Positions 20,901 through 58,944 of a DNA stretch of 64,000 nucleotides are shown one piece after another. The notes beneath the pieces were generated by a model. That model saw only the letters and a program-made list of their open reading frames with translations. It was not told the origin of the DNA and searched no databases. The DNA comes from Psammoneis japonica (taxonomy: Eukaryota): the NCBI GenBank assembly GCA_008632985.1, contig QPGO01000157.1:1-64000 (forward strand). The letters are read 5' to 3'. A program made the translations under genes and the position numbers. The first letter of the stretch is position 1; every line of letters starts with the position of its first letter.

Positions 20901-21298
20901 GTGGAGGAGGAGATGCGTTCACAAAATTGCCTCTTTTTCTGTTGGCGGTCATTTGCATTTTAATCACTGAACAATTTTGCTGCAGAGCTTGCACGCAGAA
21001 TTGTGCAGGCCAAATGTCACAAAAAGTCCCACCTGGGACTGGAGCCCATCTTTTGCAGCATGTCAACAGCACTTGCCTCAAGTCACATTGCCCTCAATCT
21101 CTTTTCCTTCCCCCTTGAGGTTGTCAAGTGCAGCCTGAAGCACTGCCATGATGTGAAGTGCACGATGCCAAATGGACACATTTTTTCACAGTCAGCAGCC
21201 AGATTCTTGTCATCCTGATCAGGCAACACTGACTTAAAGCCATGTGGATGATTGACAACAGCAGACAAAATGTCAACGCGATCTTGTGCAACTGTCTT

Positions 21299-24200: not shown

Positions 24201-25138
24201 GAGTGTTGTTGCAAGTTTCACTCTCTGCCAGCGGACCACTCCAGTGCCCACCAAACACAAAGGCATCCACACAATTGTTTGATTTGTCGTGAAGTGCCAC
24301 TTCAAACAAGGCAATGAGTCAAATGTGCAAGAGCATGTGCTGGAGTCTTGTCGTTGTTTGTGTCAAAACAAGCTCTCTTGGACAGTGCTGTGCAATCATT
24401 TGAGTTTGTCGAGATTGGTTTAAAATCTCAGGTTGACGTCATGGTGGTCCCAAAGGACCACAAGGTGCCAATGGTGCAGCATGTGCCAGACTCGCAACGC
24501 GAATGTCCACAGTCACCTTGGCATGGGAAAGTGTCAGCCCGATTCTCGAAATTCCAGAGCCAAGGCCAGAAAAAGCAACTGACAAGCACATGGCAAGGTG
24601 GACACACACCAGATGATTTGGTTCACTGCTGCCTGCATCATTTTGGCATCAAGGTTGACAAAATGTCAGGATCCACCAGCTCATGACTCAACAACAACCG
24701 CCCACCAAAGCCCTTGCCACTGACTGATGGTTTCTGCAACATCTCATTTTCTGTTCTTGCAAATGCTGCTGGTCTCAGATCAGAAGAGCACAATGCACCC
24801 AGAGTGCAAAGTCTGCAGTGTCGAAATGGAGGGATGACAACTTGTCAAGCCCACCAGTGGTCGAATGGTGGCAACACGGACCGACCCCTTTGCTGGTGAT
24901 TTGCCCTGACTGGAGCAGCTGAGCTTGCGTCATTGTCGAACAACCCATGCCCCACCTAACGCCAGAACGGTCCTTTCTCGTTTTTCGTCACATTGAGAGG
25001 AAAAAGGGAGCTGTTGCACCCATCAAATGTTTTTTTGAAACAATCCAAGGCAAGGAGAAAGAGAACGACCGGAGTGAGAGCCGACTGGCATGCGCAGGGC
25101 ACACTGCAGTTTTCGACGCAAGGGAGCAATCTGTGTAG
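21299..25138 (-). mobile_element. Probable decayed DNA transposon (unclassified); TA-free but partly CpG-retaining block
   Basis: Long interrupted protein-like minus frames and composition distinct from the flanks. Only a 6 bp inverted terminus (tacaca...tgtgta). Family not recognised. Confidence 0.3.
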
Positions 25139-29221: not shown

Positions 29222-32200
29222 TCACGTAGATGGCTGCTGAGGATCGATATCAACAACCTCGACATCGTCGTCATCTCCGTCGAAAAACGATATGGACTCT
29301 TCAACGACTTCGGTAGACTCAATCATTACGATATCATCTGTCGTATCTTGCTCTTGGACATGCTTTTTGGAGTTCGCTCTCATTTTTCGAAGCTGATTCA
29401 TGCCGAGATTAGCAAAACGGTTCGTGACAGCACCGTCGCCGGTTGTTTCGTCTGTGGTATTGGCATCTCCTTGCTTGGCGACGGCAGCACCTCCAGCACC
29501 ACCGAATCTTGCGAAAGGATTATTCCGCCTAGGTTGAGTCGAACTGCCACGCTTCGCAGCACCAAGAGCAGAGCCCAATCCTGCAAATCGGTTTTTCTTG
29601 CCACCTGCTGCCTGTGTATTTACACCAAAGCCGGCGAACCGATTCTTCATTCCCTTTGACGCCGAGGAAGAAGCCTCCACTTCCTCCTCCCCAGATTCCT
29701 CGGATTTCGGTTGTTCCTCAGACGTTGAAGCTCTTGGTGAGGATGCAACTTGCTTAAGCTTTGCAAACGAATTCGCAATAGAAACTGAGGGCTCTGTAGT
29801 TGACGGCGTGGCATCGATTGTAGCAACCTTATCCTTTTCATCGTTCTTTCTGGCGAAGGGGTTGCGGAAGCGATTTACCTCGCTTCCCCCCTCTCCCTCG
29901 TCCTTCGCATCGCGATCCTTCTTGATACTATCAGCGAGACCAGCTAACGAGAAGCGTGAAGATTCTTCGTTCGGCTTGACTGTTTCTGAAGTCTGGCTTT
30001 CCTCTCTTCCTGCTCCCTTTTTCTCCGGCGATGCTACCGTCGGCTCGGGTTTGGCTGCCTTTTTGCTAAAGAGCTTCGAAACGGATTGGCGGACCTCAGA
30101 TTGACGACGGTCGGCTTTAGAGTTACTTTCTCCACTCTTGTTTGGTTGCTTCTTGTCAAAAATGTTAGACATGGATTTGCGAATCCTCTCTTGTTCGATT
30201 TTGAATGACATTTGCTCTAAACGCTGCTGGCTTCTAGTGAGAGATGCCAAGGACCCATCAAAGAGGTTTTGCATTGCATGCTGAGTCTTTTCTCTCGTAG
30301 ATGCGCTCGCCATTGCTTCGTGTTCTCGATACGCATCCTCAAGTTGTGCAAACAGAGAAATACCAGCGTTGTAGTCGACAAGGGCAGTATTAGGATCAAG
30401 ACCCTGTTTCGGTCCCTCGCGAGAGAGCCAAGCATGAGCCGCTGCAAACCCCCCGTCCAAAATTGAAACGAAAGGAAAGCCCTTCTTCACCAAAAACAAG
30501 GCGCAAAGACTCGTCCTTGAATCATCTTCTTTAATCAATTCCTGGAGTTTGGAACTCATCTTCTGGCCATACAGCTCCGGAACTGCCTAAAATCCTTCGC
30601 CCTAGTTGATTTCAAACAACCACACACATGACAAACAGCTTAGCCGAAACATACAAAACATGATAAGTCAGCTCAGAATACAGCGTGCTTACCATCACAC
30701 AGATATGTACAGCTCCGCGGAGCGATTCAAACGTCTCTTCGAGCTGTTGAATACGATCCGGATCCAGCAATGTTTCGGGAGATAGATTGGCTGCTGTCGG
30801 AAAGCGTCCTTGTTCAAGACATGTATCGGCCGGACGACTATCCACCAAAAAGAACTTTATGGGTATCCTTTCCCCATCATCTTGGTCATTTCCCTTGAGA
30901 CGCTGCTGTCGTTTCGTGAGTATTTGCCTTCCTCTCGATGTAGATCCACTTTGCTTGCTCCAACACAGGACGGGCAACACTTCTGCGGGGGAGACTGCGA
31001 CAGTCACTTCATGATGTTGGTCTTCAAACCCTGTTAACTGTCTGTCGCTATTTCGTTTTGCCAAGGCATCGGCCATGCGTCGTTTAGTCTCATTAATGCT
31101 TTGGTTCATGGTACTCAACAATTTATTCTTCTCTGGTTGCTTTGGTCGCAAAGCTGGGTTGAAACCCTCCCCATACTTCTTCTTCAGCTTTGCATCCAGA
31201 ACCTCCAACCGACCATCAAAAGTCTTCAATATTTTGTCAACCGTGTCTTCTTTTTCCGGGTTGTATTTACGGTAGTATGCAACCAACCTTGCTCGTGTCA
31301 GTTTGGCGCGCGCCTCGTCCATTTTTCGCTCCTTCTCAGCTTGCACAGCTTGAACGTGTTCCTTCGCCTCCAATTCCAAGCGCTCCTGTAACGCAACTTC
31401 CTTGGCCTGCTGTCGCTGCACAAGTGCTGTTGAGACGGCTTCGTCCTCTGCCGCACGGAGGTGTAACGTGACTGACTTTGGAGTCGACTCCCACAAGTTT
31501 CGAGCACAGTCACACCATTCCTGCACCCAATCGACAGCCTCTTGACTCGAGGATTCCTCTTCTGGCTCGATCGCAAACCCTTCCAATGTCGTTTCTTCTT
31601 TGAATTCCAGTATTCGTTTCAATTCCTTTCTAAGTGTTTCGCCGGTAACCATTAGAAGAGTATCCGAGTTCTTTTCCAACAGCGCCAGCGAGAAAAAGAA
31701 TCGAAGGGAGTTGTTGTTGCTAATGAGAATCAAATCCCACAAAGCCACCAGCCATTTGGGGTTCATCAGTGTCCCATCGCATTCACCAGCCAAGTGAGAG
31801 ATGAACCACGACTGTGGAATGAGTCCTTGAGATTCCAAATTGCGATTGCGAAGAGTCGCGTTGTCTTCTTTACCGTGGCTGGTATTCACCTTTGGCCAAT
31901 ACCATCCCGGTAGATATCGATCTAAATGATGAACCAAAAGTGGCAAGTGATAGGATGCCAGCAAATAGAACTGTGTGTGCAGGGGCCTTGAGGCTTCCAG
32001 TCGTTCTGTATTGGCCAACGCCAAAAGAGGCATAAAGGTCGGGACAATGTTTGAGAGCATGACACTTGCCACAGCCGTTGGTATTCCTGCAGTCAGTAAC
32101 GCACAGGCTACGGGTGGCAACAAGGGGTCCAAATCCACCTCCTTGTCTGTACTGGTGTTGCTGGATTGATAGTGAAACAGCAACAAACGCGTCAACTCCT

Positions 32201-33203
32201 TGGTGGCTTGTTCCAACGTCACGTTCGTGACGGTGGGTGGTAAACCATCCCCGTCTTCATCGTCTTCTTGTTGTTGACACTGCTTGTTGTTGTGATCTAC
32301 AACAGCCACAATCCTATCCGCCAATATCGAAGATTCCTTAAGAATCCACTTCTTGATACGTTCCTTCACGTGGGTAGTGCCGTGCTCGGAGTATTCCTTC
32401 TCCCACTCGATATACGAGTCAGCGTTGCTACTTTCACGGACTTGCTCGAGGGGTTTACCGCAAACGGAGCGACACCATAAGTAAGGACGAATTCTTGGGT
32501 GCAAGTGGAATTTTGACTTTATGAATAAGCGTCGAATTTGGTCCATGGTGGAATGCGGCGAAGCAATGGCCTCTTCCAACGTTACAAACGGACTGCCCAA
32601 TTCTGGTGGGTCTGGTTTCGCGTCATCCTCTGTAGGATCCTTTGATTGTTCTTCACTCGTCTCTTTGTTGTCAACGTTGGATTCTGTCGGGTCAGCCGGC
32701 GATGATTTTTCTTCGTCAGTCTCTTTCTGTTTCTCTCCGTCAGCGTCCGTCTTCTCGGCTGTTGTCGATGGCTTATCTAACCAATCTAGAATTTCCTGCG
32801 TATCTGAACTTTGAATAGGAGCATCTTGAGCTTCCTCGACGAGTCCTTCCGTTTCTTCGGCCGATGACGACAGCACTACCAAGTCGGTTTCGTCTTGATC
32901 CAACAGACCGAGAACAGAATCACTTGTATCAGTTCTTGAACGTCCAATAGGCTGCGGCCCGAACAGATCTTCCTCGTCTTCCTCTGGCAAGCCTTTCATA
33001 CCATCAGGAGTATCGTTACTTATCGCATCCGTGGAAGCAGCGGCACTGCTTGCAGACGTTGCCACGTTTGTCGACAATGACGACTCTTTTTCTGCCGTCG
33101 ACTTGTTGGACTCGGAATCTGCGTTGGGCTGTGCTTCTGTGGCAGGACTCGCAGCACTGAACGAGAACAAGTCCGCAATTTCATCGTCGTCGGAATCACT
33201 CAT
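29222..33203 (-). CDS. TBC (Rab-GAP) domain + rhodanese-like protein (TBC1D23-like); intron from 30692 to an acceptor at 30602 or 30587
   Basis: IRPYLWCRSVCGK, FYLLASYHLPLLVHHLD, VALWDLIL (TBC); FFLVDSRP...GRFPTA...HICVM and KGFPFVSILDGGFAA (rhodanese). GTAAGC donor. An in-frame TAG lies just after the first acceptor (see findings). Confidence 0.8.
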
Positions 33204-33449
33204 GGTAAATCACGCTGTTACTGTACAATGTCTCTCTTGAGAGATACCGGTACAATGCAAGTCGCCCTTGCCCACCTTGCCCCTTGACTACGGAACGGTA
33301 CGAGCCTTGACGTCGACAACGACAACACCAACAACAACACAGGGTGTGTGGCAGGGACATGTTTATGGGGGGAGGGACAGACGCTGACGAGGGGTGGCAC
33401 TTACCGGTGCCGAGTAAGTCACATTTAACATGGGCAGGGAAAGGGATGG

Positions 33450-34200
33450 AATTGGGGTTGGGAGTAGCGAGCTGGGACAGCAGTTTGGCGGAGTGGCGGG
33501 TGAGTTGGTCAGCAAGAGATTTGGTCATCGCAAAGCCAAGGCTTCAAAGGCCCCATTGTGATGGAGTCGAAGTGTGGTGGGGGTCAAGCCAAAATGTGCG
33601 GGGGTGTGTGTTTTTCCAAGTGGCAGCGGCAGTGGGGAGGATGGCAGATGGGGACAGTTGTGTGAAGGCCCAGGCAGCATGGGCAGTGGGGTGTTGGAAG
33701 GAGGATTTGGTGGTCCAAGGGGGGAGCAGGTGGGGCAGAGATGGGGTGTTGTTGGTCGGCTCCAAAGGGCCTCAGAGAGGAGGCGGTGTTCAAAGCAGCC
33801 AGTTGCTTCAAAGTGATCAATGGAGAAGGGGACAAGGTGGATGCCAGCATCATTGAGGGCATGTGCAAGGGTTGCTTTGTGTTGAGTTTTGTGTGTTCTG
33901 TCTGACTTCTGTTTGGTGCTCGTGCACATGGTGTGCCTTGGCGCACAAGGTTTGAGGATGGGGCAGGCAAGCCAGGAGCAGGCAGTGGAGGAGGTTTGGG
34001 AATGGCAACGTTGATTGCAAGGCAGTGGTGGCCACAGGGGGAGGCAGTGGAAGCAGCTGGATTGAGCTGGATGCCTGCATCAGCGGGGTGTTTGAGGGGT
34101 GAGTGGGGTTCGAGGTTGGTGGGTTCATGATGGACGGTGGAAGAGTCGGTGCAAATGCCGGAGAGGGGGGCGAGGGTCTGAAATGTGGGCTGTGGTCCAC
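33450..34200 (-). mobile_element. 3' end of a non-LTR retrotransposon with restriction-like endonuclease (CRE/R2-type), decayed
   Basis: KHPADAGIQL...LAINVAIP (cf. RPAD...LAIDVTI), followed by LVPFSIDHF (cf. PFxxDxFG). Confidence 0.45.
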
Positions 34201-34439
34201 CAGGAGGTTCTGACAAGATGTCAGAAGGAATGGACATTGAAGTTGACAGCACCATTGCCGTTGACACAAATGCACCAATTGAACACAAGCCTTCACATGA
34301 CACACATTTGTTGCATGAAAACCAAATCACAAATGAGAAAAATGAAGATGAACAAGTGGAGTTGAGCTGCAGTGGAGTGCCAGTGCCCAAGGCAAAAAGC
34401 ATGAATGCTGACATGCATGGCACCCACATCAGTCTTGGC

Positions 34440-35760
34440 TGGTGTGCAAACAAATGAGTGGAGCTCACTCATCTCGTTTGTTGAGAGTGTTGTTTGATTC
34501 AGGCAGTGCAGCTGCTCTCATTCATGAATGATGTTTGGCACACGGAGCCACTCCAAGTCTGTGCAAGAAGACAGTTGCATGCAATGTGGCTGCAGGACCA
34601 ATGAACAGCAATGGAGTGATTGGTTTGGAGACAATTGCATCACCTGAATTTGACAGGTCAAGGAGCATTCACTGTCAACAAGCGCTGGCATTTCAAATGC
34701 TGTGTCAATGCAACATGATTCTTGGATTGGATTTTTTGACCAAAGCAGGGACAGATGTAAATTTTTCATCAAGAACAGCAAAATGGTTGGACAAGTCCAT
34801 GCCTGTGAAAGAACTCACCTTTTGGGACAATGCAGAGAATGCTTGTTTTGCTCTTGCAGGTCCAGAAGCAGACAAGGAGGACATTGACAAATTTGAGTTT
34901 CATTCATGCGCTGCTCAAATTTTGGATGCCAAGTGTGAGTCAGCATCTCCAGAAGAAGTGGCCAAGAAGCAAAAGCATCAATCAAGAGAGCAGCAATTGG
35001 AGTTGCAACAAGTGCTGGCCAAATTTTCCAAGCTGTTTGACAGAGAATGGGGTCAGCATCCACACATGTTGGTTCACTTGGAAATTGATGCCAAAGCAAT
35101 TCCTGTCCATGCTCAAGCATGTGCTGTTCCAAGAATTCACCAAGACATTTTCAAAAAAGAACTTCAGCATCTTGTCTGAATGGGGGTGTTGAGGCCTTGT
35201 GGTCCCACTCAGTGGGCATTTCCTGCATTTGTCACACCTAAAAAGGATCAACAAGTGTGGTGGGCATCCAATTTTTGCATGCTCAACAAGGTGCTAAAGA
35301 GGTTGATCTGTCCTTTGCCAAGAATTCAAGACATTTTTAAGAAGAGAAAGGGACACAAGCATTTCACCAAGTTGGACTTGTCCATGTTCCACTGCAATTT
35401 GGAGCTGGATGAAGAATCCAAGGAACTGTGCACTGTTGTTGCTCCTTGTGGCAAGCTCCAATGTTGTCAACTTGAGATGGGATTAAAGCCAGCTCCAGGC
35501 ACCATTGCTCAAGTGGTGATTGAGGAAGTGCTGACTGACATGGATGCAGACTGCTTCATTGATGATGTTGGTCTCTTCTCAATCCTTTGGTTGGATCATC
35601 TGGCAGTGTTGAGTGCGATGCTGAAACAGCCAGAAGAGAATGGTTTGAAAGTAAATCCACTCAAGTGTGAATGGGCCATTCAAAAAACCGATTTTCTCAG
35701 GTGTTGGATGACTCCAGAAAGTGTCAAACCTTGGAAAAGAAGGTTTTGGCATGGCATCTT
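34440..35760 (+). mobile_element. Ty3/Gypsy pol remnant: aspartic protease and reverse transcriptase
   Basis: LRVLFDSGS (34481), CNMILGLDFL, WAFPAFVTPKKD, PLPRIQDI, FTKLDLSMFHC, DCFIDDVGLFS (YxDD region), NGLKVNPLKCEW. Confidence 0.92.
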
Positions 35761-36639
35761 TGTCACAGCACATCCATTTTACAACCTTGAGCTGCCCTCA
35801 AGATCTGAATCTGCATTTTGAGCTCCTGCCTGTTGGCAGCACGTCTTTGGTGGGGGTGGGGGGCAGACACAGGAGGCTCAGACCAAGTGAAGAGACAGGT
35901 GGGAGTGCAAACAATTGCTGCCAGCAGTCTTGGGCTCTGTTGGTTGCACCCAGTGCCATGTCTTGAAAAGTCATGACCTCCTGTCATTCTGCTGGAGACA
36001 TGTCCTGTGCGGTGCATTGTAAAGTTTCCCCCCTCCAGCTCAAAAGACTGTGTGTGCTCTTGTTGAGATCACGTAAAAACCACGCCAGGAGGGCTCTGCA
36101 TGGGATTTCACCATCTGACCCCCTGTGCTCATGCACAGCTCTGAACTGCAGTCAGTCTGATGGCACACTCTCTCTGCCCGGTCAAGCAAATTTTGTTTGA
36201 AGGATCACAAAAAAGCACCCAAATGAACCCAGCCCCCAGCGAGCATCCTGAAATGCACAACTCACACTCAACCTTGCCAGAGACTGTGTCAATGCAATGA
36301 CACCAAGTTGGGATTCTCACAGGATGGTGACATTGTGATGCTGACTTCCACCTCTGTCATTTCAAATGTTGCTGACACTGTGTCAGTCTCACTTTGCTCT
36401 CCCCACTGTGCCGCCACATGCCACAAACAATGGCCAAGGTTGCAAAGCATGAACAGGCCGCAAATGTGCAAACAGAGCTTTGCAGCAAATCCTGACATGG
36501 TTTCCTGGCCCTTTGATGAAATGCCAGTGTTCTTGTTCACATTGAGGTCCATCTTAATGGACACAGTGAGAGTCAGAATTGCGGGTGCACCAGCCCCAGA
36601 TTGCGGGTCTGTTTTGTGACTGCTGCCACCTTCAAGGCT

Positions 36640-36830
36640 GCCCCGTTGTCAAGATGGCCAAGCCCAGCACTTGAGAGGTGACATCATGCACATGTGGTCT
36701 TTGTGCATGAGCCAAGATCCACTTTTTGTGAAGCTGTTTCTTGATGGAAACCACTCTTGAATCCACCCCACTTGCAACCACAAGCAACTTGCTCATCTTG
36801 AGAATCGCTCTGACTGATTGCAGCTTGAAA
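36640..36830 (-). pseudogene. Captured, hypermutated fragment resembling UTP4/cirhin WD40 protein
   Basis: VVASGVDSRVVSI...WILAHAQRPHVHDV resembles the UTP4 SGVD...W...RxHTHDV motif. Confidence 0.5.
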
Positions 36831-36987
36831 TGAGTGTTCCTGTTGGCATGGATCTTCCCAAGCACTCCACCATCGTGCAAAATGCAGGCAACCATTTCAT
36901 GTTGTTGTCACCTGAAAGAAGACTCACAACACCGAATGGCTCCAACGGCAATGCTGCCGCCTCTCTAGCTAGACGGCGATGCTGTGG

Positions 36988-37464
36988 GTCTTACTTGCGC
37001 CGCAGGTGCAGGGGGCGGGCGCGAGGGACCGACAGGACAGGAGTGCGTTTCGCCTGCAATTTTTTTCGCGGCATCACATCGCGGTCTGCAGAGGTGTGAC
37101 AGTGAGTGAGTGCTCTCAGCTCTTAGTTGCACCCCACTCTAGAGAGTGTCGTCAATGGCTTTCATTTCGTAACAACTTCAAAAGGCTAGAGCACAGATTG
37201 GCCAAATCATTCGTCCGCTGTTCTCTTTTTTTCCCTGTCGGGCCGTCAACAACATGAGTCAAGAGCGTGCTCCGAATGCTGCGCAGAACGAGGATGATGA
37301 ACATCTCTTTCAAGCGGTGGAATGTCTCAGTGAAGAATCGATGGATTCTGTGTCGCCCTTGCTATGCCCATCAGGTGCATCTCGACCGTTGAAACATCTC
37401 CACAAGTCAACCATCATCTCAGCAGCATCCGTTACGTCGCATAAGGTCCAGATCCCTTGGTAAC
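36988..37464 (+). repeat. Direct duplicate (copy A, partly mutated) of 38119-38585
   Basis: Near-identical over ~470 bp, with 11 substitutions and 3 small indels. Confidence 0.97.
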
Positions 37465-38117
37465 TGGCTAGCAGGGGGGTCAGACGGTCGGTGATGACGT
37501 TTCGTCACTTAAAGGGGTCATTTCATTACTTAAAGGGTTCGTTGAGTGCCGAGGCGAGTGACCGGGTGCCGAGGCGAGTGACCCAAATATGACGTCAGTA
37601 ACAGGCTAGTGACCGAGTGCCGAGGCGAGTGACCCAAATATGACGTCAGTAACAAGGCGAGTGACCGGGTGCCGAGGCGAGTGACAAATTTACATAACGT
37701 AGCTGATAAATTCACATAACGCAGCAATTTATTACAGACTATGACCGTAGACTAGTATAATGTATATACATATAAATATTAAGTTTATGCAATTTGAATT
37801 TATACATTATTATGTCTATTAAGTTTATTATTATGAAGTTGGAATGCCAACGGTAAAAGCCACACGAATGCAGTGCGAGTCATCACGCTGATGCTCCGAC
37901 GAACCGGATTGAGCCACGATGACACCCAAAGCGCCGCAAAACAGCAACAGTGAGCCAAAAAGACGCAACAGGAAAGCACAATAGTGGGGTATCGTTGCAC
38001 CACTATGAGTAGTTGAAGCGAGCAAAAAAGAGGCGCGCCGCGACGAACAAAAGCAACAGCAACACGCACCATGCACGAAACTCATCGAAACGGCGTCAAA
38101 ACAGCACAACGCAACGC
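37465..38117. mobile_element. Probable DNA-transposon terminus with subterminal repeats
   Basis: Starts where homology with copy B breaks. CAGGGGGG (hAT-like) start, GTGCCGAGGCGAGTGAC x4, CCCAAATATGACGTCAGTAACA x2. Ends at a single-N join. Confidence 0.5.
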
Positions 38118-38374
38118 NGTCTTACTTGCGCCGCAGGCGCAGGGGCGGGCGCGAGGGACCGACAGGAGTGCGTTTCGCCTGCAATTTTTTTCGCGGCATC
38201 ATATCGCGGTCTGCAGAGGTATGACAGTGAGTACTCTTAGCTCTTAGTCGCACCCTACTCTAGAGAGTGTCGTCAATGGCTTTCATTTCGTAACAACTTC
38301 AAAAGGCTAGAGTACAGATTGGCCAAATCATTCGTCCGCTATTCTCTTTTTTTCCCTGTCGGGCCGTCAACAAC

Positions 38375-40180
38375 ATGAGTCAAGAGCGTGCTCCGAATGC
38401 TGCGCAGAACGAGGATGATGAACATCTCTTTCAAGCGGTGGAATGTCTCAGTGAAGAATCGATGGATTCTGTGTCGCCCTTGCTATGCCCATCAGGTACA
38501 TCTCGACCGTTGAAACATCTCCACAAGTCAACCATCATCTCAGCAGTATCCGTTACGTCGCATAAGGTCCAGATCCCTTGGTAACATACTGTCAACACTA
38601 TCGCCTTCACTGCTCTTTCCAAGTAATCACGAACTTGGACAATCGGACCGCTCCGCATTTCTCTCTGCAGACTCTGACGTTGCCGACGATGCTGAATGCA
38701 GTGGAGGAGTCTGCGAAACTGCTTGGGGAATAAAAGGACAATCATGACACCATAACGACCGATCCTGTGCCTTTTTCTCAACAGAGACAGAGCGATGCTG
38801 ACGAAAACAATGTTTTCAAGCGAAAAGAGCCGAATCCAATTTTGGTTTCCATACTCTACGGACTCATCAACACCAGCATTGTACTACCGTATGTACCCGT
38901 CCTCATGTCGTTTGGGAGCATTATTTATTGCGATCCCGTCTTTGCTCCGTACATGTCAAGTTTGATCAAGCTCACAATAGTATCGGGTATGGTTCATCAA
39001 GTTTGTTTTTCGTCTCTGTCGACTTTGCCTTTTGCCGTGGAACAAGTGCAGGATGCGGGTCTTATCTTTTTGTCACAAATGGCTCGGACCATGGCTCAGT
39101 ACTGTAAGAATAATATTTACGCTGACGACGAAATGCTGGCAACCATCACGGTTGGGTTGGGGCTTTCTACTGCTTTTGTTGGGATGCGGTCTAATTCTGA
39201 TTGGCAAAGCACAACTCGCGCAGTGGGTTCAAGCCTTACCTACACCCGTGGTGGGAGGATACCTCGCATTTATTGGCTGGTTCTGCGGACTATCTGCTTT
39301 CAAGCTCATGTGCATTGATATCGACGACACGAATGCTGATTCTCTTTTTGAGTCACAGTGGATGTTTTGGTTGCCGGGTGTTGCTGGGGGGTTGTTGATT
39401 TACGTGCTTATCAGATCACTGCGACGTATGGCGGTGTTGCCTAGATGCATCCTCTTTATTCTGATGTTGTTCTATGCCAGTCTTTGGATAACAAACACAT
39501 CCATAGCTCAAGCTACAGAACTGGGATGGATCACGCATTTGTGGTATTATACTTGGGACTATGTCCGGTTGAACAAGGTTTGTTTGGTCAGCCTTGCCAC
39601 AACAAGCACTTACGTTGTGCAGCATGATTTTTGTCGTTGCTATTTCTAGTAGCTTGGATGTCGCGGCGATTGAATTGGAACTCAAGAACCAGCCGCTAGA
39701 CTACAATCGGGAACTGCAAATGGTGGGAACGAGTAATTTGGTTTCAGGACTGGCGGCCGGGTATACTGGAAGCTACATTCTTAGTCAAAGTGTCTTTTCT
39801 CTTCGAGCGGGAATCACTTCAAGATTAGCTGGTTTCGTTATCGCCGGCTGCGAATTGATTGTCTTTGTTCTCCCCTTCTCGGTTTTGTCGTTTGTTCCCA
39901 ACTTCTTTTTTGGAAGTCTCTTGATCATGATTTGCATTGATCTAATGTACGAATGGCTATGGGACGTTCGATCAAAATTCACGAGTGCGAGCTACATTAC
40001 ATGCCTTGGTACCTTTGGTTTGATCCAGGTGTTGGGGGTCGAGTATGGTATCATTGCCGGAGCTTGTCTGTACTTGCTGGCATTCAAGTTTGGATTCAAC
40101 ATGAGTGATCGTAGCACCGTTGACAACGACGTCAGAAATGCTACGACATATCATCAACTTGCGTCGAAGCTAGATTCCTA
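38375..40180 (+). pseudogene. SulP/SLC26 anion (sulfate/bicarbonate) transporter, disrupted
   Basis: QVQDAGLIFLS, LPTPVVGGYLAFIG, SSSLDVAAIE, DYNRELQMVGTSNLVSG...GYTGSYI. Frameshifts at ~39180 and ~39590, stops in the 5' part, no STAS domain seen. Confidence 0.88.
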
Positions 40181-40417
40181 TCCAATCAGGGCACGGCAAG
40201 ACGCAGGAAAAATAGATGATGTGGCTTGCGAGAAATCCCAGGGAACCCCGTGCGAAGTACCAAGGATAAGTTGTTGGATACCAAGGATGTGCAGTGGGCA
40301 CTCAGCGCTTCTCCAAATCGCTTCCCTCAGGCAGCGAGCTACTCTGATATACGGCGCTATTACTCGTGGCGGCGTCTCTAAAGCGAAGTCAAATAGTACC
40401 AGGTAGGGCGTCGTCTT

Positions 40418-40598
40418 GAACTGCTTTATCGTCCCTTGAGATTGACGCATGAGGGCGTCCTGAGACATCTCTAGATAGTCCATGCGCATGCTCTCTGGAA
40501 AGACACAAACAGCAGAAAACAACTACGAGTACAAGCATTCCATACCATGTAGGCGATTGCAACTGCAAACGATTCAAGAACATTAGCTACAAGCATCC
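40418..40598. repeat. Unmutated inverted homolog of 2856-3054
   Basis: Direct alignment; retains TA and CG sites lost in the other copy. Confidence 0.9.
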
Positions 40599-41642
40599 AC
40601 TCAAGGACGTCCCCTCTCGAAGCGACTTTTGAAGAAGAGCGTCACCATTGGCGTTTTTTGCGCTTCTGGTTGATAACACAAAAGATGCTACCGCCGTCAG
40701 TCCAAAAACAAAAAAAGACCTTTCAATAAAATAGGTTTGCACCGTACCGTACTGTCCACGGCCAATGGTGCTTTTTCAGTCCCAAAAGGGATTCATCGAG
40801 TCCGACAAGATCGAACGGCAAGCATTGCGATGGACGATACTTACAAGACAAAGTCGATGCTCGAAGGACATCGTACCGATGCTTGAAGAACTACACACTG
40901 AGTTAACAAAGCCTACGTTGCGATTGTAGAAGGTATGAGCTTTACGCATGTGCATTTGAACGTGCGGCTTCAAAACTCTCCGTACGCCTACCGAATTTGC
41001 TAACACAACCATACTATTTTTTTTTGTTTCTTTGAAACCCCACAGAAATCTTTCCGACTAGTAAAGGTATTAAAATCATCAAGTACTCCATTGCAGAAAC
41101 AAGTCTGGATCCGTCCACGGTGCAAGCACCACACTGACTGTCCACGGCCAATCTTGCTTTTTCAGTCCCAAGAAGGAATCATTGAATCAGGCATTGAGCT
41201 TTCCATCGCCAAAAAGCTGAATCCAAAATGTTGAATATGGAGGTACGTGCTGTGCGTTATATGTGCCGAACTGCAGGCGCCACGAAGATTCTGTTGGATA
41301 GAATATCGCTGCTCACCCGAAACTTACCGATCGATACGATCACAAAAGCAACTGCACCATGCTCATTCATACACACGGATCCAGAGTATGGTCAGAAAAG
41401 CCGCTGCCAGACTCAATTCTTCCATTCGGGAACTTGTAAAGCAAGCAAAGGCAAGTGTGAGTGTTACTACCTGCAGTCCTTTCCGAACCCAGTCTTCTTC
41501 CCGCCTCGCCACTTCCCCGATTCTTTTTCTCTCTTCTACAAATGCTCCACTCCTTGTCTCTAACTCCAGCTCCTTTCTCGCTATCTCTAATTCCCGCTCT
41601 TCTCTCTTCCCGTGTTTTTCTTCTTTCCCGCATGCACTCGAA

Positions 41643-43428
41643 CTACCCAACGGCGTCATGTCGCCGGTTCAAGATTCTAGCGGACCTTCGAACAGTTCTC
41701 CCATCGGCAGAGAGGACATACACGCTTCCCAAAGCTGCTCTAAGCCGAACAGACCGCCTTGGAATGATTGAATCCGTAATGAGGGATGTAGGTGCTTGAA
41801 CGTGTTGACCTTCTGTCTGTTCCGTCTCCACCAACAACTCGTCTCCACCATGCTGGTCTGGAAGGTTCTCATTGCCTTCGTCGGCAGGGATCTCTTGTGC
41901 CGAAGGTACCACCACTGCTGACGCCGTCTCGTGGATAGGATCGTCGCTGTCAGAAGCACGGTGATCCGTAATGAGGGATTCCCGCACTTCGACACGCCCT
42001 TCTTCTTCTCGATCTTCTCCCAAGACTTCAGGCAAGCCATTGTGTTGATTTGGAACGGAAGCCTCATCGTCGGACGGAACCTCGCACGCTGAAGGCACCG
42101 CCATTGCTGATGCCATATTGTGGAAGGGACCATCCTTGTCCGAAGCAGGCAAGTGAGACCCTTCCAATTGTTGTTCACCAATCAACACTTCGTGCAAGTC
42201 ATTGTGATGATCTGGACCAAACGCATCGAAATCGGAAGGGTCATCTTGGACGTGATCATCATCTAAAAGAATCGCATCGAGAGGATTCTCTGCCGCAACA
42301 GATGCAATGGAAGATGTCTCGTGTTGACTCGATGTATCAGGTGCAAGCTGTGATTGTAGAGAGTAAAGTAGAAGTAGAAATAGGTTTTAGTCAATTGTCA
42401 ACGAAAAGGAGCGATAATGCAACGATAAAATGACTTACACTCTGACTGCTCTCCTCAGGACTAGCGCTGAGTCTACCGGTAATACCACCGCATACGTCAT
42501 CTTGATCACGTGTGATAATGCGTCGTTTCCGAGAACCCAATGCTCTGCGCTGATACTTCCTTTTGTCGCCGGAGAAGGTGTCTATGAAACGTTCATTCGA
42601 TGATTCTTGAACAGACAGCTTCTCCATAACGTACAATGAATGGTCAGGCTTGGAGTGCTCATCCATACGGCGTTTCCTCGGGGCACGGATAGTCTTTGGG
42701 TGGAGGTCTCGACGCGTGCGAGGAAAGCAAGTGTCGTTCACACATGAACAAGGCTTTGGACGTCCCCAGCCGAATGCTAGATGGTTGTTTCCATTGTCAC
42801 TACTCTCCTTGTGAATGGAACCAACAAGAACGCTGTCACCAACTTGCTTGTAGGAAGTCCGACGACGTTTGCGTGAACCAAGTTCCGTACTGCATGTGTG
42901 CCGAAACCACCTCTTGTGACCACAACTCGGATCGACAAACAAGCATTCGCTCGAAGACTGGCCAGCAATCTGTTGCACAACACTTGCAAAGTGATCGTGC
43001 TGGGAGCTCTCATTATAACATCGGAGTAGCGATGACTCGTCTGAACCCAAGTATATCGGTGACCAATCTGAAAGCTCCGGCTGAACTTCCAGACGAGATG
43101 GTTTCGAAATGCCTTGTCGTGATTCCTGCTCGGATGTTGTTGAGGATGCATTGATGCCCGTCGATTCGTCCAGCAAGTACACGTTGGAGGTATCGTGTTT
43201 GCTTGGAATGACGCTCAACTGAACCGATGACTGCCATTGGAGACGTTTCGAAGGACGTCCGCTTGTCGAAAGCTTCATGTCGCGGGAAACCTCGTCTTCG
43301 GTCAACAGCCTGCTGCGTTTGTCGCCGACGCTCATGCGAGCCCGCCCCATGCTCTCCATTGGAACGGTACGGGAAGAAAGGTTGTATCTCATTGTTTGTT
43401 TGGACATTGTGGATGTGCTTGAAAGCAT
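41643..43428 (-). CDS. Intact two-exon orphan protein (~564 aa); exons 43428-42439 and 42347-41643
   Basis: 990 bp + 705 bp open frames joined in phase by a 91 bp GTAAGT...CACAG intron conserved in copy 1. Ends RRSVRLRAALGSVYVLSADGRTVRRSARILNRR. Confidence 0.75.
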
Positions 43429-44700
43429 CGTGAGATTGTGTGGTTTTTGCGTGAAGAAGAGATCATCATCTTGTTTGAAACACGAGTGGGTTTGATTTTT
43501 TGTGACATCAGGTTCATCGTAGAAATATACGAGAATATCATACCACAGAACTGTTTCCAAAATGTCCGATCGCCAAAAACAACATCAAGTTTAAAAAAAT
43601 ATACTGGTATACGTGACTTAAGGATACATTTTGAGAAACAGCTAGCCGGCCGCGGCCGGCCAGGAGAAATTTGGGAGGTCTGTCAGTGGTGCGGACGAGG
43701 AAAACGAAAAATTAAAATTCCACGAAGAACGCAGAATTTGCGTAGCCACCATGGCGAATTTGCGTCGCGTCCACCGTCGTTGCCACCGTTTTTCACAAGG
43801 TGAGTCACTCGTGATGTTGTCGTCATTTATCTTTAGCACCATTTACGTGTTGGATCGATTTTGACAAGTGCCACTCCACGCAAGAAAATCGGTTTCGACT
43901 CCTTCGGTGTGTGAGTCTGTGAGTCTGCTGCTGTTGTCGTCGTTCCGGTATGTTTCGTCGAGTTTGTTATTATTTCCCTCCTCTCATCCCTTTACCTATG
44001 CCTCATTCGTTTCATAATAAATATAGATAAAAGGCGCTGATGTGTGGGGCACCTTTGGAGTGTTTGAGACGAGCTCTGGACGTCGCGGCTCGTGGTTGGT
44101 GTGTTTCCAAAAGACGTTAGCGGTCCGGCACTTATTCTGTTTCTTTCGGGATACTGATATTGTTCAACGTGCAACATTTGCAAACCACCAAGATCCAAGC
44201 ATTGCAACTCATGCAATGTCTGTGTTTATAATTTGATCAGTACGTATATCTTATCGTTGGGGTCTGGCTTTTGCAAATGATAATATCTCTATGCATTTCA
44301 CTCAGTCGTTTTGCAAAGCGAAAGATTATTTGTTACTTTGAGCGCTTCTCCTTGTGCCCACCATGCATTTCTATGTTTTTCTCTCAAACTCTTTGTAAAA
44401 TTACTGAAATAACGAATCTGATCCGTACAGGTAAGACGGATCTCTCAAAGCCTTCCAGTTGTGATGGTAGAATCCATTAGATGGAGAGTTGTCCTGGCCC
44501 GCGACGCCGAAGAAATCAGGATCTGCTGCAACGCAATCCCAGTAATCGTTGAGACCCTTTTGCGTCCACGGTATGGGCATGGGGGAAGCGGAATGATCAT
44601 GTACATGGACGGTACGTTGTCTGGATGATGTTTTCGTCAGCACATCTTGTTTCTCTAGAAACTTATTATAAGCACCGCTATCCCCAAAAGAAGCGGGGCG

Positions 44701-47039: not shown

Positions 47040-48635
47040 CTAGCGGCGACTCATGATCCTTGCGGATCTACGCACGACACGCCCGGTATTCGACGAAAGA
47101 AAGACACTGCCAGTGGCTTGACGGAGCCTAGGCGAGCGTCTCAATGGGACAGTGTGGGCTTTCTTTTCCTTGTTTCTCACAAGTACAGCATCAGGAACAA
47201 CATCCTCCTCTGTCACTGGATTGTTGTCGGCAGCCATATCCTGAATGTCGAATGTATCGTCAGGCTCCTCCGCTACAACTCCAAGAACGACTTCCTCGTC
47301 GTCTTGTGTAGCCATCGCATGATCGTCCGTGGCGTCAGCAACAGCAGGTTCCTCAACGTCAGCACCGGGAACGCCCACCCCCGCATCGACTGGAGCATTG
47401 CCAATAGCCATAGCAGGTTCCTCAGCATCAGCAACAGGAACGCCGACCTCCGCATCGACTGGAGCATCGTCAATAGCCATAGCAGGTTCCTCAGCATCAG
47501 CAACAGGAACGCCCACCTCTGCATCGACTGGAGCATCGTCAATAGCCACAGCAGGTTCCTCAACGTCAGCACCGGGAACGCCCACCTCCGCATCGACTGC
47601 AGCGTCGTCAACAGCCACAGCAGGCTCGTTCAAGGCATCCCAAGGCTCTTCAGCAGCAGCAGCAGCAGCAGGAACTACTTCTGCCGCCGCAATAGGATTG
47701 TTTTCCATAGCATCAGCCGGTTCAATCGCCACTGCAGTCCGTACCCAGCCCCGCCAGTGATCATATATTGGGTGAGTTTGATATTCACGAATATACAGGT
47801 TTTGTTTCGAGTCAAACTCAAGCAGTGCCGCAGTCAACTGCTGATCATTCAGGACGGGAATAATACGAGTGTAACGTGGACGTCGAAGAACAGGTTTAGC
47901 AACCACGCCGGTATGGGTTGGGGGAAGGTCGCCGACAAAGACATTCCTGACCAGTTCTTCGTCCGGCAGCCACTTTAAATGCGGCTGACGATACTGCCGA
48001 GCCAGCTTGTCTTGCTCCTTGTCGATTCGTCTCAATGCAAAGTCCAACCTCTGATCCAATAGCACTGGAATCTTGGTTGTATACTTTGGATATCGAAGAA
48101 CTTTTGGAGCAGCCACGCCGGTTCGGACGGGACGATCGTGAACGACACCGTACAGGTTCTCCAGTCCTGCAGGTCTCCATCTGACACGCCCGCGACCAAA
48201 GCATTTGCGTTTCCAGAAGAGTACCCAAAGGATCACAAATTGAAAAGCAATGTAGACGAAGTAGAAGAACCAATACACGGTCCATACAACCACAGCAACC
48301 GCGAGAGCAGCCGCAACAGCATCGCACGCTCGATTCCAAAAAAGAGTCGTCAGGTCGTCAATTTCCATAATTCGGCGGTACAGAAAATAGACAACCGACT
48401 TCAACGAGGAGTATACGAACAACACAGCATATAAAGCGAGGAGAGCTGTACAGACTCCTACAATGAAGGACGCCAGTTCTTCAATCATGCAGCGGATCCC
48501 GTCCATTGCAACGCACGAGAATATCCAAAGTTCCCAAAGAAAACCGCTGACGATTCGGCCGTGGTTCTGCTTACCGTGAAATATGCGTAGCAGGAGGTTC
48601 ATAAAGAGAATGAGTAGTGCAATATATGCAATCAT
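47040..48635 (-). CDS. 531 aa orphan: N-terminal transmembrane helices, duplicated basic motif, acidic 23-aa tandem repeats, RRSPRL/RRSARI tail
   Basis: Single long ATG-started ORF in normal-composition DNA with a coherent modular layout. Confidence 0.75.
   Translation of the reverse strand: MIAYIALLILFMNLLLRIFHGKQNHGRIVSGFLWELWIFSCVAMDGIRCMIEELASFIVGVCTALLALYAVLFVYSSLKSVVYFLYRRIMEIDDLTTLFWNRACDAVAAALAVAVVVWTVYWFFYFVYIAFQFVILWVLFWKRKCFGRGRVRWRPAGLENLYGVVHDRPVRTGVAAPKVLRYPKYTTKIPVLLDQRLDFALRRIDKEQDKLARQYRQPHLKWLPDEELVRNVFVGDLPPTHTGVVAKPVLRRPRYTRIIPVLNDQQLTAALLEFDSKQNLYIREYQTHPIYDHWRGWVRTAVAIEPADAMENNPIAAAEVVPAAAAAAEEPWDALNEPAVAVDDAAVDAEVGVPGADVEEPAVAIDDAPVDAEVGVPVADAEEPAMAIDDAPVDAEVGVPVADAEEPAMAIGNAPVDAGVGVPGADVEEPAVADATDDHAMATQDDEEVVLGVVAEEPDDTFDIQDMAADNNPVTEEDVVPDAVLVRNKEKKAHTVPLRRSPRLRQATGSVFLSSNTGRVVRRSARIMSRR
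47340..47630 (-). repeat. 69 bp coding tandem repeat x4 (EEPAVAIDDAPVDAEVGVPVADA)
   Basis: cagcaggttcctca...gcatcgactggagcat units visible directly. Confidence 0.95.
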
Positions 48636-51600
48636 AATGGGGGTAGTGGTATCAATAAAGATAGATTGGTAATAACAGTGTTTGATTCAATGCAAGCAAA
48701 ACTTGAAATTGTGTGGTGACTTGTTGCTTCTGGCCCATTCGTGAATGCGTAGAAACTGTACCGGAGAAGCCCGTAGGAAATCCGACGGAGTCCGCCGCTC
48801 ACGATTTTCGATTTCGCGGGAGTTGGCAGGTTTGCATGTCGGGTTACTCGTACCGGTACGACTGCCGGCGGGGCTCTAGCTGGCTGTGGAAGAGGTGAAA
48901 GCAATCAGACACGGAGACTGATGTTGGATGTATCCATGATGAATGCATCAACTTTGGAGCTGACATCTACAATGACACACCCAGTGTCACTTCGACAGAG
49001 CTCATTCTGCTGCAGGAGGAGTGCTGCACATGAGACCTTCGAACACACTTTGCAAAGGTCGCCAGTCAAAAAGTGCTGCAGTCTGCAGATTTTCGATGAC
49101 ATGTGTCCCAACTCCCACGTGTGAAGTCCACCTGGCATTCTTCTGTTGATTCTTCTTCCTCTTCTTTTGCCACACTTTGCCTCTGTTGTGCCCCAAATTT
49201 CATTTCTTCTTTCCCTTCCTTCCAGTTGCATCCACAATTGCACTTCATCTCTCCCTTTTGCAAATCGGACCAAACAGAGCCATGAGTGGATTTTCTCTCC
49301 TGTTCCTGCCTTTTGGGTTGTCAACGGATGACCCATCATTCTTGCTGTTCTGGGCCACTGCTCCCTTCTTCCGGCTGGAGCCACATCCTGCCATGATGCA
49401 CTCAGCTTCGTCATCGTCATTCAGGAGACATGCATCAATGATGATGCCAAGCAAGGAGCAGTCCAAGACTGCTGATGCCTTTTCAAAATGTTGCATTTGC
49501 TGCATGAGCCATGAGCAAGCAGTGTTGCTAGAGTGTTGTGCAAATTCGTCTGCAGCATCAAGAGCAACGGCAGAGGCAACTGGCCTCCAGGCCTGCGCTC
49601 CGTGAACTCTGATTTTTTGTGTTCTGCGGCACATCCACAGAACAGTGTTCCACAATGGTGACACCACCTTCACCTCAAGTTGTGCCAAGTGAGCCTTGGA
49701 GCAAANTCTTTGCCTTTCGATCCATTGCTGATCACAGTCAAGAATCACAACAGAGCCCTCCAACGTCATCTTCTGCAATGTTCCCAATCACAAAAATTCA
49801 TTTGATGCACAACAGAATCCCCAACAGAAGCACGACACTGCCAACAGCAAATGCAATGAACAATTCTCTTTTGAGCTCAATCCCATTGATCTTGTCCCTT
49901 TTAATTCTTTTCTTCTGAAGGGTGAAGCCGCAAACCCAATCACTGTGCAAACCAAAGCACAGCCCCAATGAATCAATCCAAAGACTGCATGCAATGCAGC
50001 AGAAGCAGCAGCATTTGATGTGACACAGAAGCTAAAAGTGCCACAAGCAAGACCTGCAAAACTTTGTTGCTCATGATTTGATGAATCATGGCACCCAACC
50101 GTGTTTGCAAAGTTGAAGCCATGACTGCATGCACCATCCAAAACAGTGTGCTGCCACATGAAACACCCCAGGGGATTGGGGAAAGCTCTGCCAACTGATG
50201 TTGCATTGAAAAAGACAGCCATGGCAAAAATGCCACAGACAGCCACAATTTTGCACCTTGGAGCAAATTTTCATTCTTCCATCATTTCAGTCAACAGTGT
50301 GGCCTCTCTTGCATCTTGACTGTTGTTCATTTGCTTGTCATTCTTCTGTCCTCCCAGTTTGGCTGCAGAACCTTCAAATGCGTGCATTGCCTGACAAGCC
50401 AATGTGACAGCCACATGGTCTGTCCATTGATCCCCAGATGCTTCTGCCAAAACATTCCCATCATTTTTTTTGAGTTGAGCAATGCACTTGCCTTTGGCAC
50501 TGTAATTTTTTGCCTTTTTTAAGAGTTCAACACAACACAGAAGCTCAAAGTGCCACAAGCAAGACCAGCAAAACTTTGTTGCTTGTGATTTGATGAAGCA
50601 TGGTGTCCGACAGTGTTCCTGCCAGCATCACAATGACAGTGCCCATGTCAATCATGGGTCAATCTGCCAGTGGGTGCTTCACTTGACTGTCCAAAAGAGT
50701 TGAGGCCACAGCTGCTCCAAGAACAGTGACAGTGGTGAGAGGACTCACGATGCTGGCTGGTGCAGTCACAATCATTGGAAAAATGAGCAGGATCATCCTC
50801 CTGCTAAAAAAAATGCAGCCATTGCCCATTGCTGCAATCACAACCACAAGCAGCCAATCAACCAGAGAGCCAGCAGCAGGCAGACAGAGGATGACGTGAT
50901 GACACAATTTTTTGTGAGGACATCTGCCCTTCATCATGTGTCACGTGTGCCCACGTCATTTGTGAAGCAGCATGACTTCAAAGACATGGGTGCCCTGGCT
51001 TGGGAGGGCCAACAGCTTCAGGCTTGTTGCATTTGACAGTGTGTCACAGGTGCGAATGTAAAAGCAGTTTGTGTCATGCATGCAGTGCAGCTCTGGCAGA
51101 GAGGAGGCAAGGGGTCATTGACACTTTGGAGGTGGCCCAACAAATTGCACCTGCCATTTGTCAAACAGATGGACAAATGTCCAAACTGGCAGCTCCCACC
51201 TCAGCTTCTTTCATCCTTGTTGGTCACATTTGATGCAGAGAATCAGTGGCACCAAATCTGTTTGTTCATTTCAGAGAGAGAGAGACCCCAAGCAAACACC
51301 TGACAGAGCTCCCATCAGATGATCCACAATGTTGGAGAATGACAAAGGTGGCACAGTTCTTTGTGGTGCAATGAACTTTTTTTGCTTTTTGTGTGTTTGA
51401 CAGAACAGCTGTGCACAGACACAAACCAACTTGACTGATTGTCTCTGAGGGACAGCAAGGCACACTGAGCTGATGTGGTGCCAAGGATTTACAAGGCAAA
51501 CTTGTAAATCCTGGTGGCACACAGCGCTGGTGGCAATGCTGTGTGCAGCATCAAATCAGCACCACGCATGTCATCTCCACATTGACTTGCAGCAGATTTG

Positions 51601-52949
51601 TTGAATGGCAGGGTCATCAAACCCTGCATGACACAGAGTGGCACAGCTCAACTTCAGCAAAACAGGGAGCAACAGGTGCCAGCCCAGATGACACATGAGA
51701 GGACACAAAGGCTTGTCATTGTTGCAAATCATTGTTGCAAACAAAATTTTGCAGGCTGGAATCACCCTGCAGTGATGAAATTCTGCACATCAGAGTTGAA
51801 CCTGCACGCTTGAATCATTTGACATTTCCCAGGGCAAAAGTTTCAGCCCAAGTCTGGAGAATGTCCAAAACTGGTGTGATGAGAAGCAAATCTCATGTGG
51901 GAAAATGCAGTCTGGTGCCAAGTTGACATGCACTCAGCAAGCAGAATTTCATGCAAGTTGTGTGGCAACAGTTGCTGATCTTGAGAAGCACAAAAGATGC
52001 AGGCTTGCAATTTGGCAAAGTGCAGTTGGCAAGTTGTGAGCCAACATTGTTGGGTTGTCAGAATGGGATTTCCATCAATGACACCGCAGTGCTCAGATTT
52101 GAGACCATGCATCTCTGCCAGCATGCTTGCCAGAGAGGAGGATGTTGTGACATTTGGTTTTGTCATTCAAAAAATCCTCAATCATTTCCAGTCACTCAAA
52201 GAAGGGCTTGAAATGTTCTTGGTCTTGGCCTCACAACCAAAACAGGCAAGAAGATGTGCTGGAAAGCTGTGCCAGCATGTGATGATGGGGGGCACATGGC
52301 AAGCTGCCTGTCCATTTCCTGACAACATGGAAAGGACAAACAACATTTTGCATTGCCTTGTCACACAACCAGCTGTCACTTGGGTGTGTTTGATGCTTTG
52401 TGGCACATTTTGCACTCAGAGTTAAGCAGGTTTTGACAGGTTCTTAGTGATTGCCTTCATTGCATGTGGAGTGCCTGCTGTCACTTTGGCCATTTGGGAG
52501 GTTCCTTGAAGCTCTGTGACATGAGCCACACTTGCAAATGCAATGCTTGAGACTCTTGACAAGCACTCCTCTTGCATGCAAGCCTGCTTGTCTGCCACAA
52601 TTTTGGCTCTTGCTGACAAAAGCAGGAAGGTGAAAGCCAGAGTTTGGCAAGTCATGACCTGCTTGCCTGCTCCCCCACTAAAGAGTCATCTGTGACATGT
52701 TTCTGTGCTGAACCAGAGTGATGCTTGTCAACAATTGAAGTTCCTAAATGTCTGCCCATTGTTTCTGTCAATCTTCATCACACATGGACATTGGCTGTTC
52801 TTCTTGATGGCTGTCAAGTTGCAAATGATTCAATTGTTTTCACTTGTTTTGAGTTGCCAGTTTTGCTTTTTGTGTGTGCATCATCAAACTTGTTAAGTTT
52901 GCATGCATTTCATCCCTTCTCTTTCTGCCAACCCAAAATCTGCCAATGA

Positions 52950-58930: not shown

Positions 58931-58944
58931 AGATTGGTGGCATT

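Follow-up and report, generated by a model that had tools for sequence, protein, structure and literature searches.

Hypermutation at TpA in transposon-type domains and, probably, in one host allele of the alga Psammoneis japonica

We analysed a stretch of 64,000 nucleotides from Psammoneis japonica (GenBank assembly GCA_008632985.1, contig QPGO01000157.1, positions 1 to 64,000; hereafter the window) in which a short region 5' of a gene of the SulP (sulfate permease) family is present twice, as copies A and B. At most of the sites that differ between the copies B has the dinucleotide TA and A does not, and the window contains four large domains that are severely depleted of the same dinucleotide. 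In both settings we observe a dinucleotide-specific, strand-symmetric A:T>G:C process that is ordered by sequence context from RTAY (R, purine; Y, pyrimidine) to TTAA; in the domains it forms blocks, within which it runs to saturation. We consider it probable that A and B represent two haplotypes, and that the host DNA of haplotype A was changed in place by the TpA hypermutation seen in the domains. The two copies are:

36988-37464, plus strand: copy A, the region 5' of the SulP gene on what is most likely haplotype A, partly TpA-converted.
38119-38585, plus strand: copy B, most likely the allele that escaped conversion; it runs on into the SulP gene.

Local alignment of A with B gives 95.6% identity over 477 columns. 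The copies differ by 11 substitutions, 10 in ungapped columns and one (GTAC in B, GTGC in A) within a 4-base indel, and every one of them is a transition. Eighteen TA dinucleotides are present in B; nine are retained in A, five have become CA and four TG, and no TA is found in A that is missing from B. Thirty of the 32 CG dinucleotides of B are also retained, the other two reading TG in A (37007 and 37128), and the remaining positions outside TA and CG, about 367 in number, carry no substitution. Uniform placement would put at least nine of the 11 substitutions on the 36 TA bases of 467 with P = 4.6e-9. The differences span 37007 to 37426. The TpA-class spectrum of the pair is one-directional and uses both strands. 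Our realignment exactly reproduces the copy coordinates and the 11 substitutions (nine at TA, two at CG, none elsewhere) given in a preliminary description of this DNA, and the five CA and four TG products in a single copy agree with its statement that the change is strand-symmetric. To its list we add three indels of 1, 5 and 4 bases, each extra in A: a G at 37011, GACAG at 37031-37035 and four bases at 37108-37112.

The open reading frame (ORF) at 37173-37463 of A is intact, with two residue changes, and copy A contains a 69-codon ORF. In B, a small ORF (38375-38584) terminates with TAA. No in-frame splice from this small ORF to the SulP body could be fixed from the sequence, and we therefore refer to a 5' region rather than to an exon 1.

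An older duplication within the window served as a control for the mutational background.

3531-6394 (plus strand) and 40813-43664 (minus strand): inverted duplicate of 2.8 kb, 87% identity, with an ordinary substitution spectrum.

Its 297 substitutions comprise 131 transversions, 51 CG-class changes, 36 TA-class changes and 79 other transitions, and the TA-class changes are evenly divided by direction (17 versus 19). Because this spectrum is ordinary, that of A and B differs from the one usual in this genome. ORFs are present on both copies of the inverted duplicate.

The domains that share the TA loss of copy A are the following:

1-3238: domain 1, depleted of TA and CpG, with a decayed copy at 2794-3055 of 40415-40658.
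14242-25136: domain 2, TA rho 0.03-0.06 throughout; CG rho 0.10, 0.31 and 0.46 in three successive blocks.
33465-36966: domain 3, a Ty3/gypsy retrotransposon relic that abuts copy A; TA rho 0.05, CG rho 0.20, with no TA in the fast contexts ranked below.
48968-60215: domain 4, depleted of TA and CpG, with a Plavaka-type transposase relic and a decayed copy at 58916-59392 of 32814-33288.

Together the four domains cover 28,883 bp, or 45% of the window, and hold 103 TA and 306 CG, compared with 1472 TA and 1952 CG in the 34,735 bp outside. Within them TA rho is 0.01-0.1 and CG rho 0.02-0.49, whereas CA and TG are almost doubled (rho about 1.6-2.1). Per kb, TA is 12-fold down and fast-context TA about 90-fold down. 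The domain edges are sharp, to about 100 bp, and the domains share little mutual similarity within the window. Two of them contain recognizable remains of transposon proteins:

35180-35821, plus strand: reverse-transcriptase fragment in domain 3, matching Pfam RVT_1, with 91 homologues; the nearest named relative is a diatom.
53845-54381, plus strand: Plavaka (KDZ-type) DNA-transposase relic in domain 4, E = 2e-8.

The other 56 of the 58 domain ORFs of at least 120 residues had no match in Pfam.

The direction of change within the domains can be read from two kinds of comparison. In the reverse-transcriptase fragment we considered positions that agree in at least six of eight homologues. At the nine conserved Tyr, the fragment has Cys four times (TGY), His three times (CAY), Phe once and Tyr once; conserved Arg has become Gln three times, Trp once, Cys once and other residues twice, and is unchanged four times. 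Because a working element needs its Tyr codons, the TA loss came after insertion, and on both strands. The copies of host gene fragments in domains 4 and 1 have between them lost 16 TA and 37 CG, against four changes in reverse. These comparisons show that the polarity within the domains is loss of TA (and of CG). The decayed segment at 58916-59392 in domain 4 corresponds to the 5' end of an 865-codon gene (30612-33209, minus strand) and differs from 32814-33288 by 30 CG and 10 TA losses, with two changes in reverse. The piece at 2794-3055 and its counterpart at 40415-40658 are not collinear with the inverted duplicate described above.

Given that decayed host gene fragments do sit in domains 1 and 4, the letters of A might have been copied by gene conversion from a decayed pseudocopy in a transposon domain elsewhere. 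We regard this as very unlikely. The window holds no second copy of the region, and A differs at TA and CG only, whereas the old pseudocopies in domains 1 and 4 also carry many transversions. The ultimate cause would, moreover, remain the same hypermutation.

The removal of TAA and TAG leaves long open frames in the domains, in which gene finders would predict false genes. Overlapping open frames of 100-300 codons occur there in all six frames, including at 33300-36900. With the loss of these stop codons and of Tyr codons, decayed elements come to resemble long ORFs and to evade domain searches.

What links copy A to the domains is a dependence on the bases that flank the TA. We expressed survival as TA per kb in the domains relative to that outside, for each pair of flanking bases:

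TTAA: 0.68
CTAA/TTAG: 0.28
GTAA/TTAC: 0.16
CTAG: 0.09
ATAA/TTAT: 0.05
CTAC/GTAG: 0.026
ATAG/CTAT: 0.015
GTAC: 0.01
ATAC/GTAT: 0/247
ATAT: 0/105

Fast-context TA number eight within the domains and 863 outside. The two flanks act roughly independently: when flank factors are fitted to the four contexts in which a T/A flank protects, the expected number of survivors in the six others is 28.2, and 13 are observed. Conversion in A follows the same ranking. All six RTAY sites of B are converted in A, as opposed to none of the four TTAC/GTAA and neither of the two CTAG sites. Overall, eight of nine fast-context sites but one of nine slow-context sites are converted (Fisher P = 0.003), and a rank test of conversion in A against the domain survival values gives P = 0.0037. 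Thus, one tetranucleotide preference, with RTAY fast and TTAA spared, governs both the domains and A. The run of domain 3 that is free of fast-context TA extends past 36966 and through A up to 37363. Copy B has a TA rho of 0.64 and nine fast-context TA in 467 bp, an ordinary non-domain density; A has a TA rho of 0.34 and one fast-context TA. We also tried a strict per-strand model, in which the modified A is preceded by V-T (V, any base other than T). The informative product directions were two for and two against it, and we therefore state the rule at the level of the tetranucleotide only.

Whether A and B are alleles or a tandem duplicate turns on the join between them and on what lies to either side:

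37465-38117: extra sequence present only after copy A, with a 51-bp tandem repeat at 37552-37685 and an AT-rich core.
38118: single N, marking a false scaffold join; the contig before it ends inside the insertion of haplotype A, and the one after it starts with B.
38586-40406, plus strand: SulP gene body, with Pfam PF00916 on 39573-40406.

The N is one letter long and stands immediately 5' of B. We compared the window with assembled contigs of one sample (run data X1-X3); the results hold among the matches listed, which leave 93 further pieces. A contig of X1 (1630 letters) covers 35443-37076 unbroken, from domain 3 across 36988 into the copy. It has the letters of B at the first three A/B differences (37007, 37011 and 37031) and ends one base short of the first TA difference. 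Downstream, a contig of X1 that matches 37656-38117 extends 102 letters beyond 38117, and one of X2 that matches 37895-38117 extends 13 letters beyond it, in both cases into sequence that is unlike B. These extension letters were found nowhere in the window. A further X2 contig, 38213-39627, leads from within B into the gene. Because the contigs pass from domain 3 into a B-type copy start and leave 38117 into sequence other than B, the join at 38118 is false; in all likelihood, then, A and B are alleles set in tandem by that join rather than a young duplicate. The two haplotypes would consist of domain 3, A and the extra sequence on the one hand, and of domain 3, B and the SulP gene on the other.

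This result speaks against the description of the pair as a young duplicate, as none of the run contigs listed connects 38117 with B and the DNA that precedes A leads to a B-type copy start; the X1 and X2 contigs favour the alternative mentioned in the same description, that the N leaves room for alleles. A tandem duplication requires both copies to be contiguous on one molecule, which these contigs contradict, although as contigs only they are not final. The depth of A-type contigs is close to half that of the contig common to both forms (about 54 versus 113), which is a weak hint only, since depth is not copy number. The other single Ns of the window (2011 and 49706) have no local duplication alongside.

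In the rival account, A and B are true paralogues, produced by tandem or segmental duplication, and A was mutated because it was duplicated, through a homology trigger like that of repeat-induced point mutation (RIP) but with TpA as the target. The assembled window does place A and B in tandem, and the mutated stretch (37007 to 37426) coincides with the duplicated one while the flanking insertion is untouched. However, these coincident limits are forced, because the contig of B simply begins there: only 19 bases lie between the N, which B follows immediately, and the first A/B difference. In addition, among the matches listed no contig connects 38117 to B and the copy start has domain 3 alone as its left neighbour, and just one of the two copies is mutated. 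In the chlorarachniophyte Bigelowiella natans, the hypermutated region is reported to be single-copy (bioRxiv 10.64898/2026.01.13.699255). We therefore hold duplication to be an unlikely explanation.

Errors of consensus or base calling at modified bases, or poor quality at contig ends, would be another way to create such differences, and A does lie close to the end of a contig; for the confirming run, moreover, the records give no library type. However, random errors would not be limited to TA and CG. The X1 contigs span A and B with no listed differences at the nine TA sites, and the stretches 34479-34813 and 34929-35239 of domain 3 match run contigs letter for letter. An artefact is accordingly hard to credit.

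The sequence at 37465-38117 probably represents the first part of a repeat or transposon inserted on haplotype A. This stretch is unconverted, with a TA rho of 0.99 and 17 fast-context TA, and its word depth of 208-228 is about twice that of neighbouring contigs (~113), a weak hint only. Insertions of long-terminal-repeat elements private to one haplotype split diatom assemblies into two versions of a locus in the cases described by Filloramo et al. 2021 (PMC8147415). The one-haplotype insertions and mosaic assemblies described there resemble the arrangement of A plus insertion versus B here; the organisms, Phaeodactylum and Thalassiosira, differ. Where such assemblies show tandem copies beside single Ns, the copies are best treated as potential haplotypes.

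The SulP ORF has homologues of 59-72% identity, and all eight named ones among the 120 listed are from diatoms. Within its coding region, at 39792, the window reads GTGT and an X1 contig GTAT, a further TA/TG polymorphism in a fast context. Contigs of X1 and X2 diverge from the window before 40328 and behind 40415, and the assembly may be rearranged or collapsed at this 3' end of the gene (40328-40415).

We then considered the direction of the differences between A and B. They likely run from B to A, because the TA content of A is below background and that of B ordinary, and because the changed contexts are those erased in the domains. A search for an outgroup yielded none: the 68-residue peptide of B had no homologue among longer proteins, a 29-base pattern across one variable site was absent from metagenome contigs, and the SulP relatives, at most 72% identical, are too distant for a comparison of the 5' region.

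The opposite polarity would make A ancestral, with B having gained TA through a RIP-like change of CpA/TpG to TpA. Nine of the 11 differences would also be expected from C>T at CpA, and the search for an outgroup returned none. Several observations nevertheless make this polarity highly improbable. The TA content and fast-context density of B are those of the non-domain background and those of A far lower, and the change in the domains of the window is loss of TA, not gain. Under this polarity the two CG differences would have to be TG>CG, and an X1 contig carries CG at 37007, as B does. Finally, the four extra bases of A at 37108-37112 lengthen a GTGA/GTGC repeat, and that repeat comes into being only through the TA>TG change. 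The preliminary view that A was caught in mid-process thus has the support of context and composition; that of an outgroup was sought and not found.

TA conversion and CpG decay proceed at different paces. A has lost nine of 18 TA and two of 32 CG (Fisher P = 7e-4), and domain 2 displays this order at a more advanced stage, with TA depleted throughout while CG rho climbs from block to block. It follows that TA conversion is faster than, and separable from, CpG decay, as had been proposed when it was first described as no by-product of that decay. The two CG>TG changes in A would amount to roughly ordinary allelic CpG divergence, with no need for a special process. Between 35443 and 37007 the X1 contig and the window differ 12 times, including six CpG transitions (five lost in the window and one in X1); the remaining differences include one transversion that gives CG in X1, and none is simply TA-class. 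At 35545-35546 the window has TG and the X1 contig CA, as would be expected if a single ancestral TA or CG had decayed separately in the two haplotypes.

Our preferred reading, then, would be as follows. The alga would be diploid, with A and B as the two haplotypes at a single locus, which the assembly lined up one after the other across the N. In haplotype A, the stretch of host DNA that separates a dead Ty3/gypsy element from a private repeat insertion, about 450 bp long, would have been hypermutated in place, with the A:T of TpA becoming G:C (TA>TG or CA, on either strand), RTAY being preferred and TTAA spared. In the four transposon-type domains the same process has run to saturation, with the slower decay of CpG to TpG/CpA behind it. 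Because A is not transposon sequence and both strands are changed, editing of retroelement RNA or cDNA is ruled out and the process acts on chromosomal DNA in place. The likeliest chemistry would be the one put forward for B. natans, enzymatic deamination of adenine in DNA at 5'-TA-3' to inosine, which is read as G; a route through modified thymine is a possible alternative. Targeting may follow a silent or foreign chromatin state, which on haplotype A would reach about 400-450 bp further than on B, perhaps by way of the private insertion.

A number of points weigh against this reading. The insertion beside A is wholly unconverted (17 fast-context TA) and, if it caused the silencing of A, should itself be converted unless it is younger; it may postdate the hypermutation episode, which may also have come in bursts. 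Slow-context TA survive at eight of nine sites in A, compared with about four expected under a constant-rate model scaled to the domains, which is an estimate. The strict per-strand rule for the changed base pair fits two of the four informative events. Domains 1 and 2 contain no recognizable transposon protein (two of 58 domain ORFs match Pfam). As no outgroup was found, the polarity between A and B is drawn from composition and context only. The run data consist of contigs, their library type is not on record and they perhaps come from the assembly's own sample; their depth is not copy number.

Elsewhere in the window, tandem repeats occur at 6110-6666 and 6666-7226 (98.8% identity), with related units at 6756-7445 (about 92%), and a periodic array of about 69 bp lies at 47337-47627, inside long ORFs.

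We compared the process with known systems of sequence-specific mutation. RIP in ascomycete fungi changes C to T at CpA, thereby creating TpA and stop codons, and needs duplicated DNA and a sexual cycle. It resembles the present case in that transitions accumulate at one particular dinucleotide, destroy transposons where they stand and may extend to adjoining host DNA. However, TpA, which rises in copies mutated by RIP, falls here, a polarity evident from the Tyr codons and the gene-fragment copies; the removal of TAA and TAG leaves long open frames in all six. CpG decay driven by 5-methylcytosine probably accounts for the CG>TG/CA loss in the domains, where CG rho is 0.05-0.46, and the change of Arg CGN to CAN/TGN, and the six CpG transitions among the 12 allelic differences of domain 3 are of this type, but it cannot yield TA>TG/CA, and the loss of TA is faster and more complete than that of CG. 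Editing by ADAR (A>I) or APOBEC (C>U) is fixed only via a new retrocopy, with one strand affected. It shares with our case a deamination-type transition signature on retroelements; here, by contrast, both strands are affected (Tyr>Cys and Tyr>His) and host DNA that is not transposon has been changed in place.

The closest match is the process reported for B. natans by Mettrop et al. (bioRxiv 10.64898/2026.01.13.699255), and the one described here is of a kind described once before, in that one rhizarian alga. In the mutation-accumulation lines of that study, two integrated viral regions accounted for 231 of the 302 point mutations of the nuclear genome. Nearly all of these 231 were A>G or T>C, all of those at TpA, at a rate of about 6e-7 per site per generation, and the process was active in 11 of the 15 lines only. 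TpA-poor genes of B. natans are enriched in reverse transcriptase and DDE transposase. The authors propose an adenine deaminase like ADAT2, and cite the preference of ADAR for U 5' of the edited A. As set out in that report, the likeness extends to mutations that are nearly only A:T>G:C at TpA, with TpG or CpA as the product depending on the strand, to sharply limited blocks, which in B. natans are inserted DNA and here probably are as well, to a lasting trace of TpA depletion with gain of CpA and TpG, and probably to the lack of a tie to copy number. In A, nine of the 11 differences are A:T>G:C at TpA with both products present, and the other two are CpG transitions.

There are also differences from B. 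natans as it is described in that report. B. natans is a chlorarachniophyte, whereas the organism here is probably a diatom (a stramenopile). The targets in B. natans are giant-virus and virophage DNA; here they are relics with a Ty3/gypsy reverse transcriptase (RVT_1, domain 3) or a Plavaka-type transposase (domain 4), together with the host DNA of copy A. The process has reached saturation here (TA rho 0.03-0.1, versus 0.45 in the region from a nucleocytoplasmic large DNA virus in B. natans) and is accompanied by CpG decay. Here, unlike in B. natans, host DNA beside an element is converted on what is probably one haplotype. The events in B. natans arose de novo in mutation-accumulation lines, at about 1000 times the background rate, whereas ours are known from sequence alone. 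The main text of Mettrop et al. mentions neither diatoms nor CpG nor a wider sequence context such as the preference for RTAY and the sparing of TTAA. In a full-text literature search, TpA depletion in diatom transposons was not reported, Mettrop et al. being the sole matching report, and the portions of Maumus 2009 (PMC2806351), Hoguin 2023 (PMC9998398) and Veluchamy 2015 (PMC4504042) that concern diatom transposons or DNA methyltransferases describe no such signature. New here, therefore, are the transposon targets, the saturation, the spatial coupling with CpG decay, the tetranucleotide rule and the spill-over into a host allele.

The pair of A and B adds to this comparison that ordinary host DNA is converted where it lies, so that the process has no tie to retrotransposition, and that TpA conversion precedes CpG decay. 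The early stage caught in the pair also reveals the order of contexts, RTAY first and TTAA spared, which is a fingerprint that could be used to find the enzyme. More tentatively, and with the balance still somewhat against it in our judgement, diatoms and chlorarachniophytes may have in common a chromatin-guided DNA-editing defence whose epigenetic boundary shifts between haplotypes and erodes a host allele. Such a defence would turn the TpA of silent inserted DNA into TpG/CpA, and its chemistry would probably be adenine deamination, RTAY being preferred. As its boundary would be set epigenetically and not by sequence, the two haplotypes within a cell could differ in its position by hundreds of bases, and the locus studied here would then be a natural, still heterozygous read-out of such a shift. 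The same signature as in B. natans, found here at saturation, suggests a widespread and overlooked genome defence across the lineages of stramenopiles, alveolates and rhizarians.

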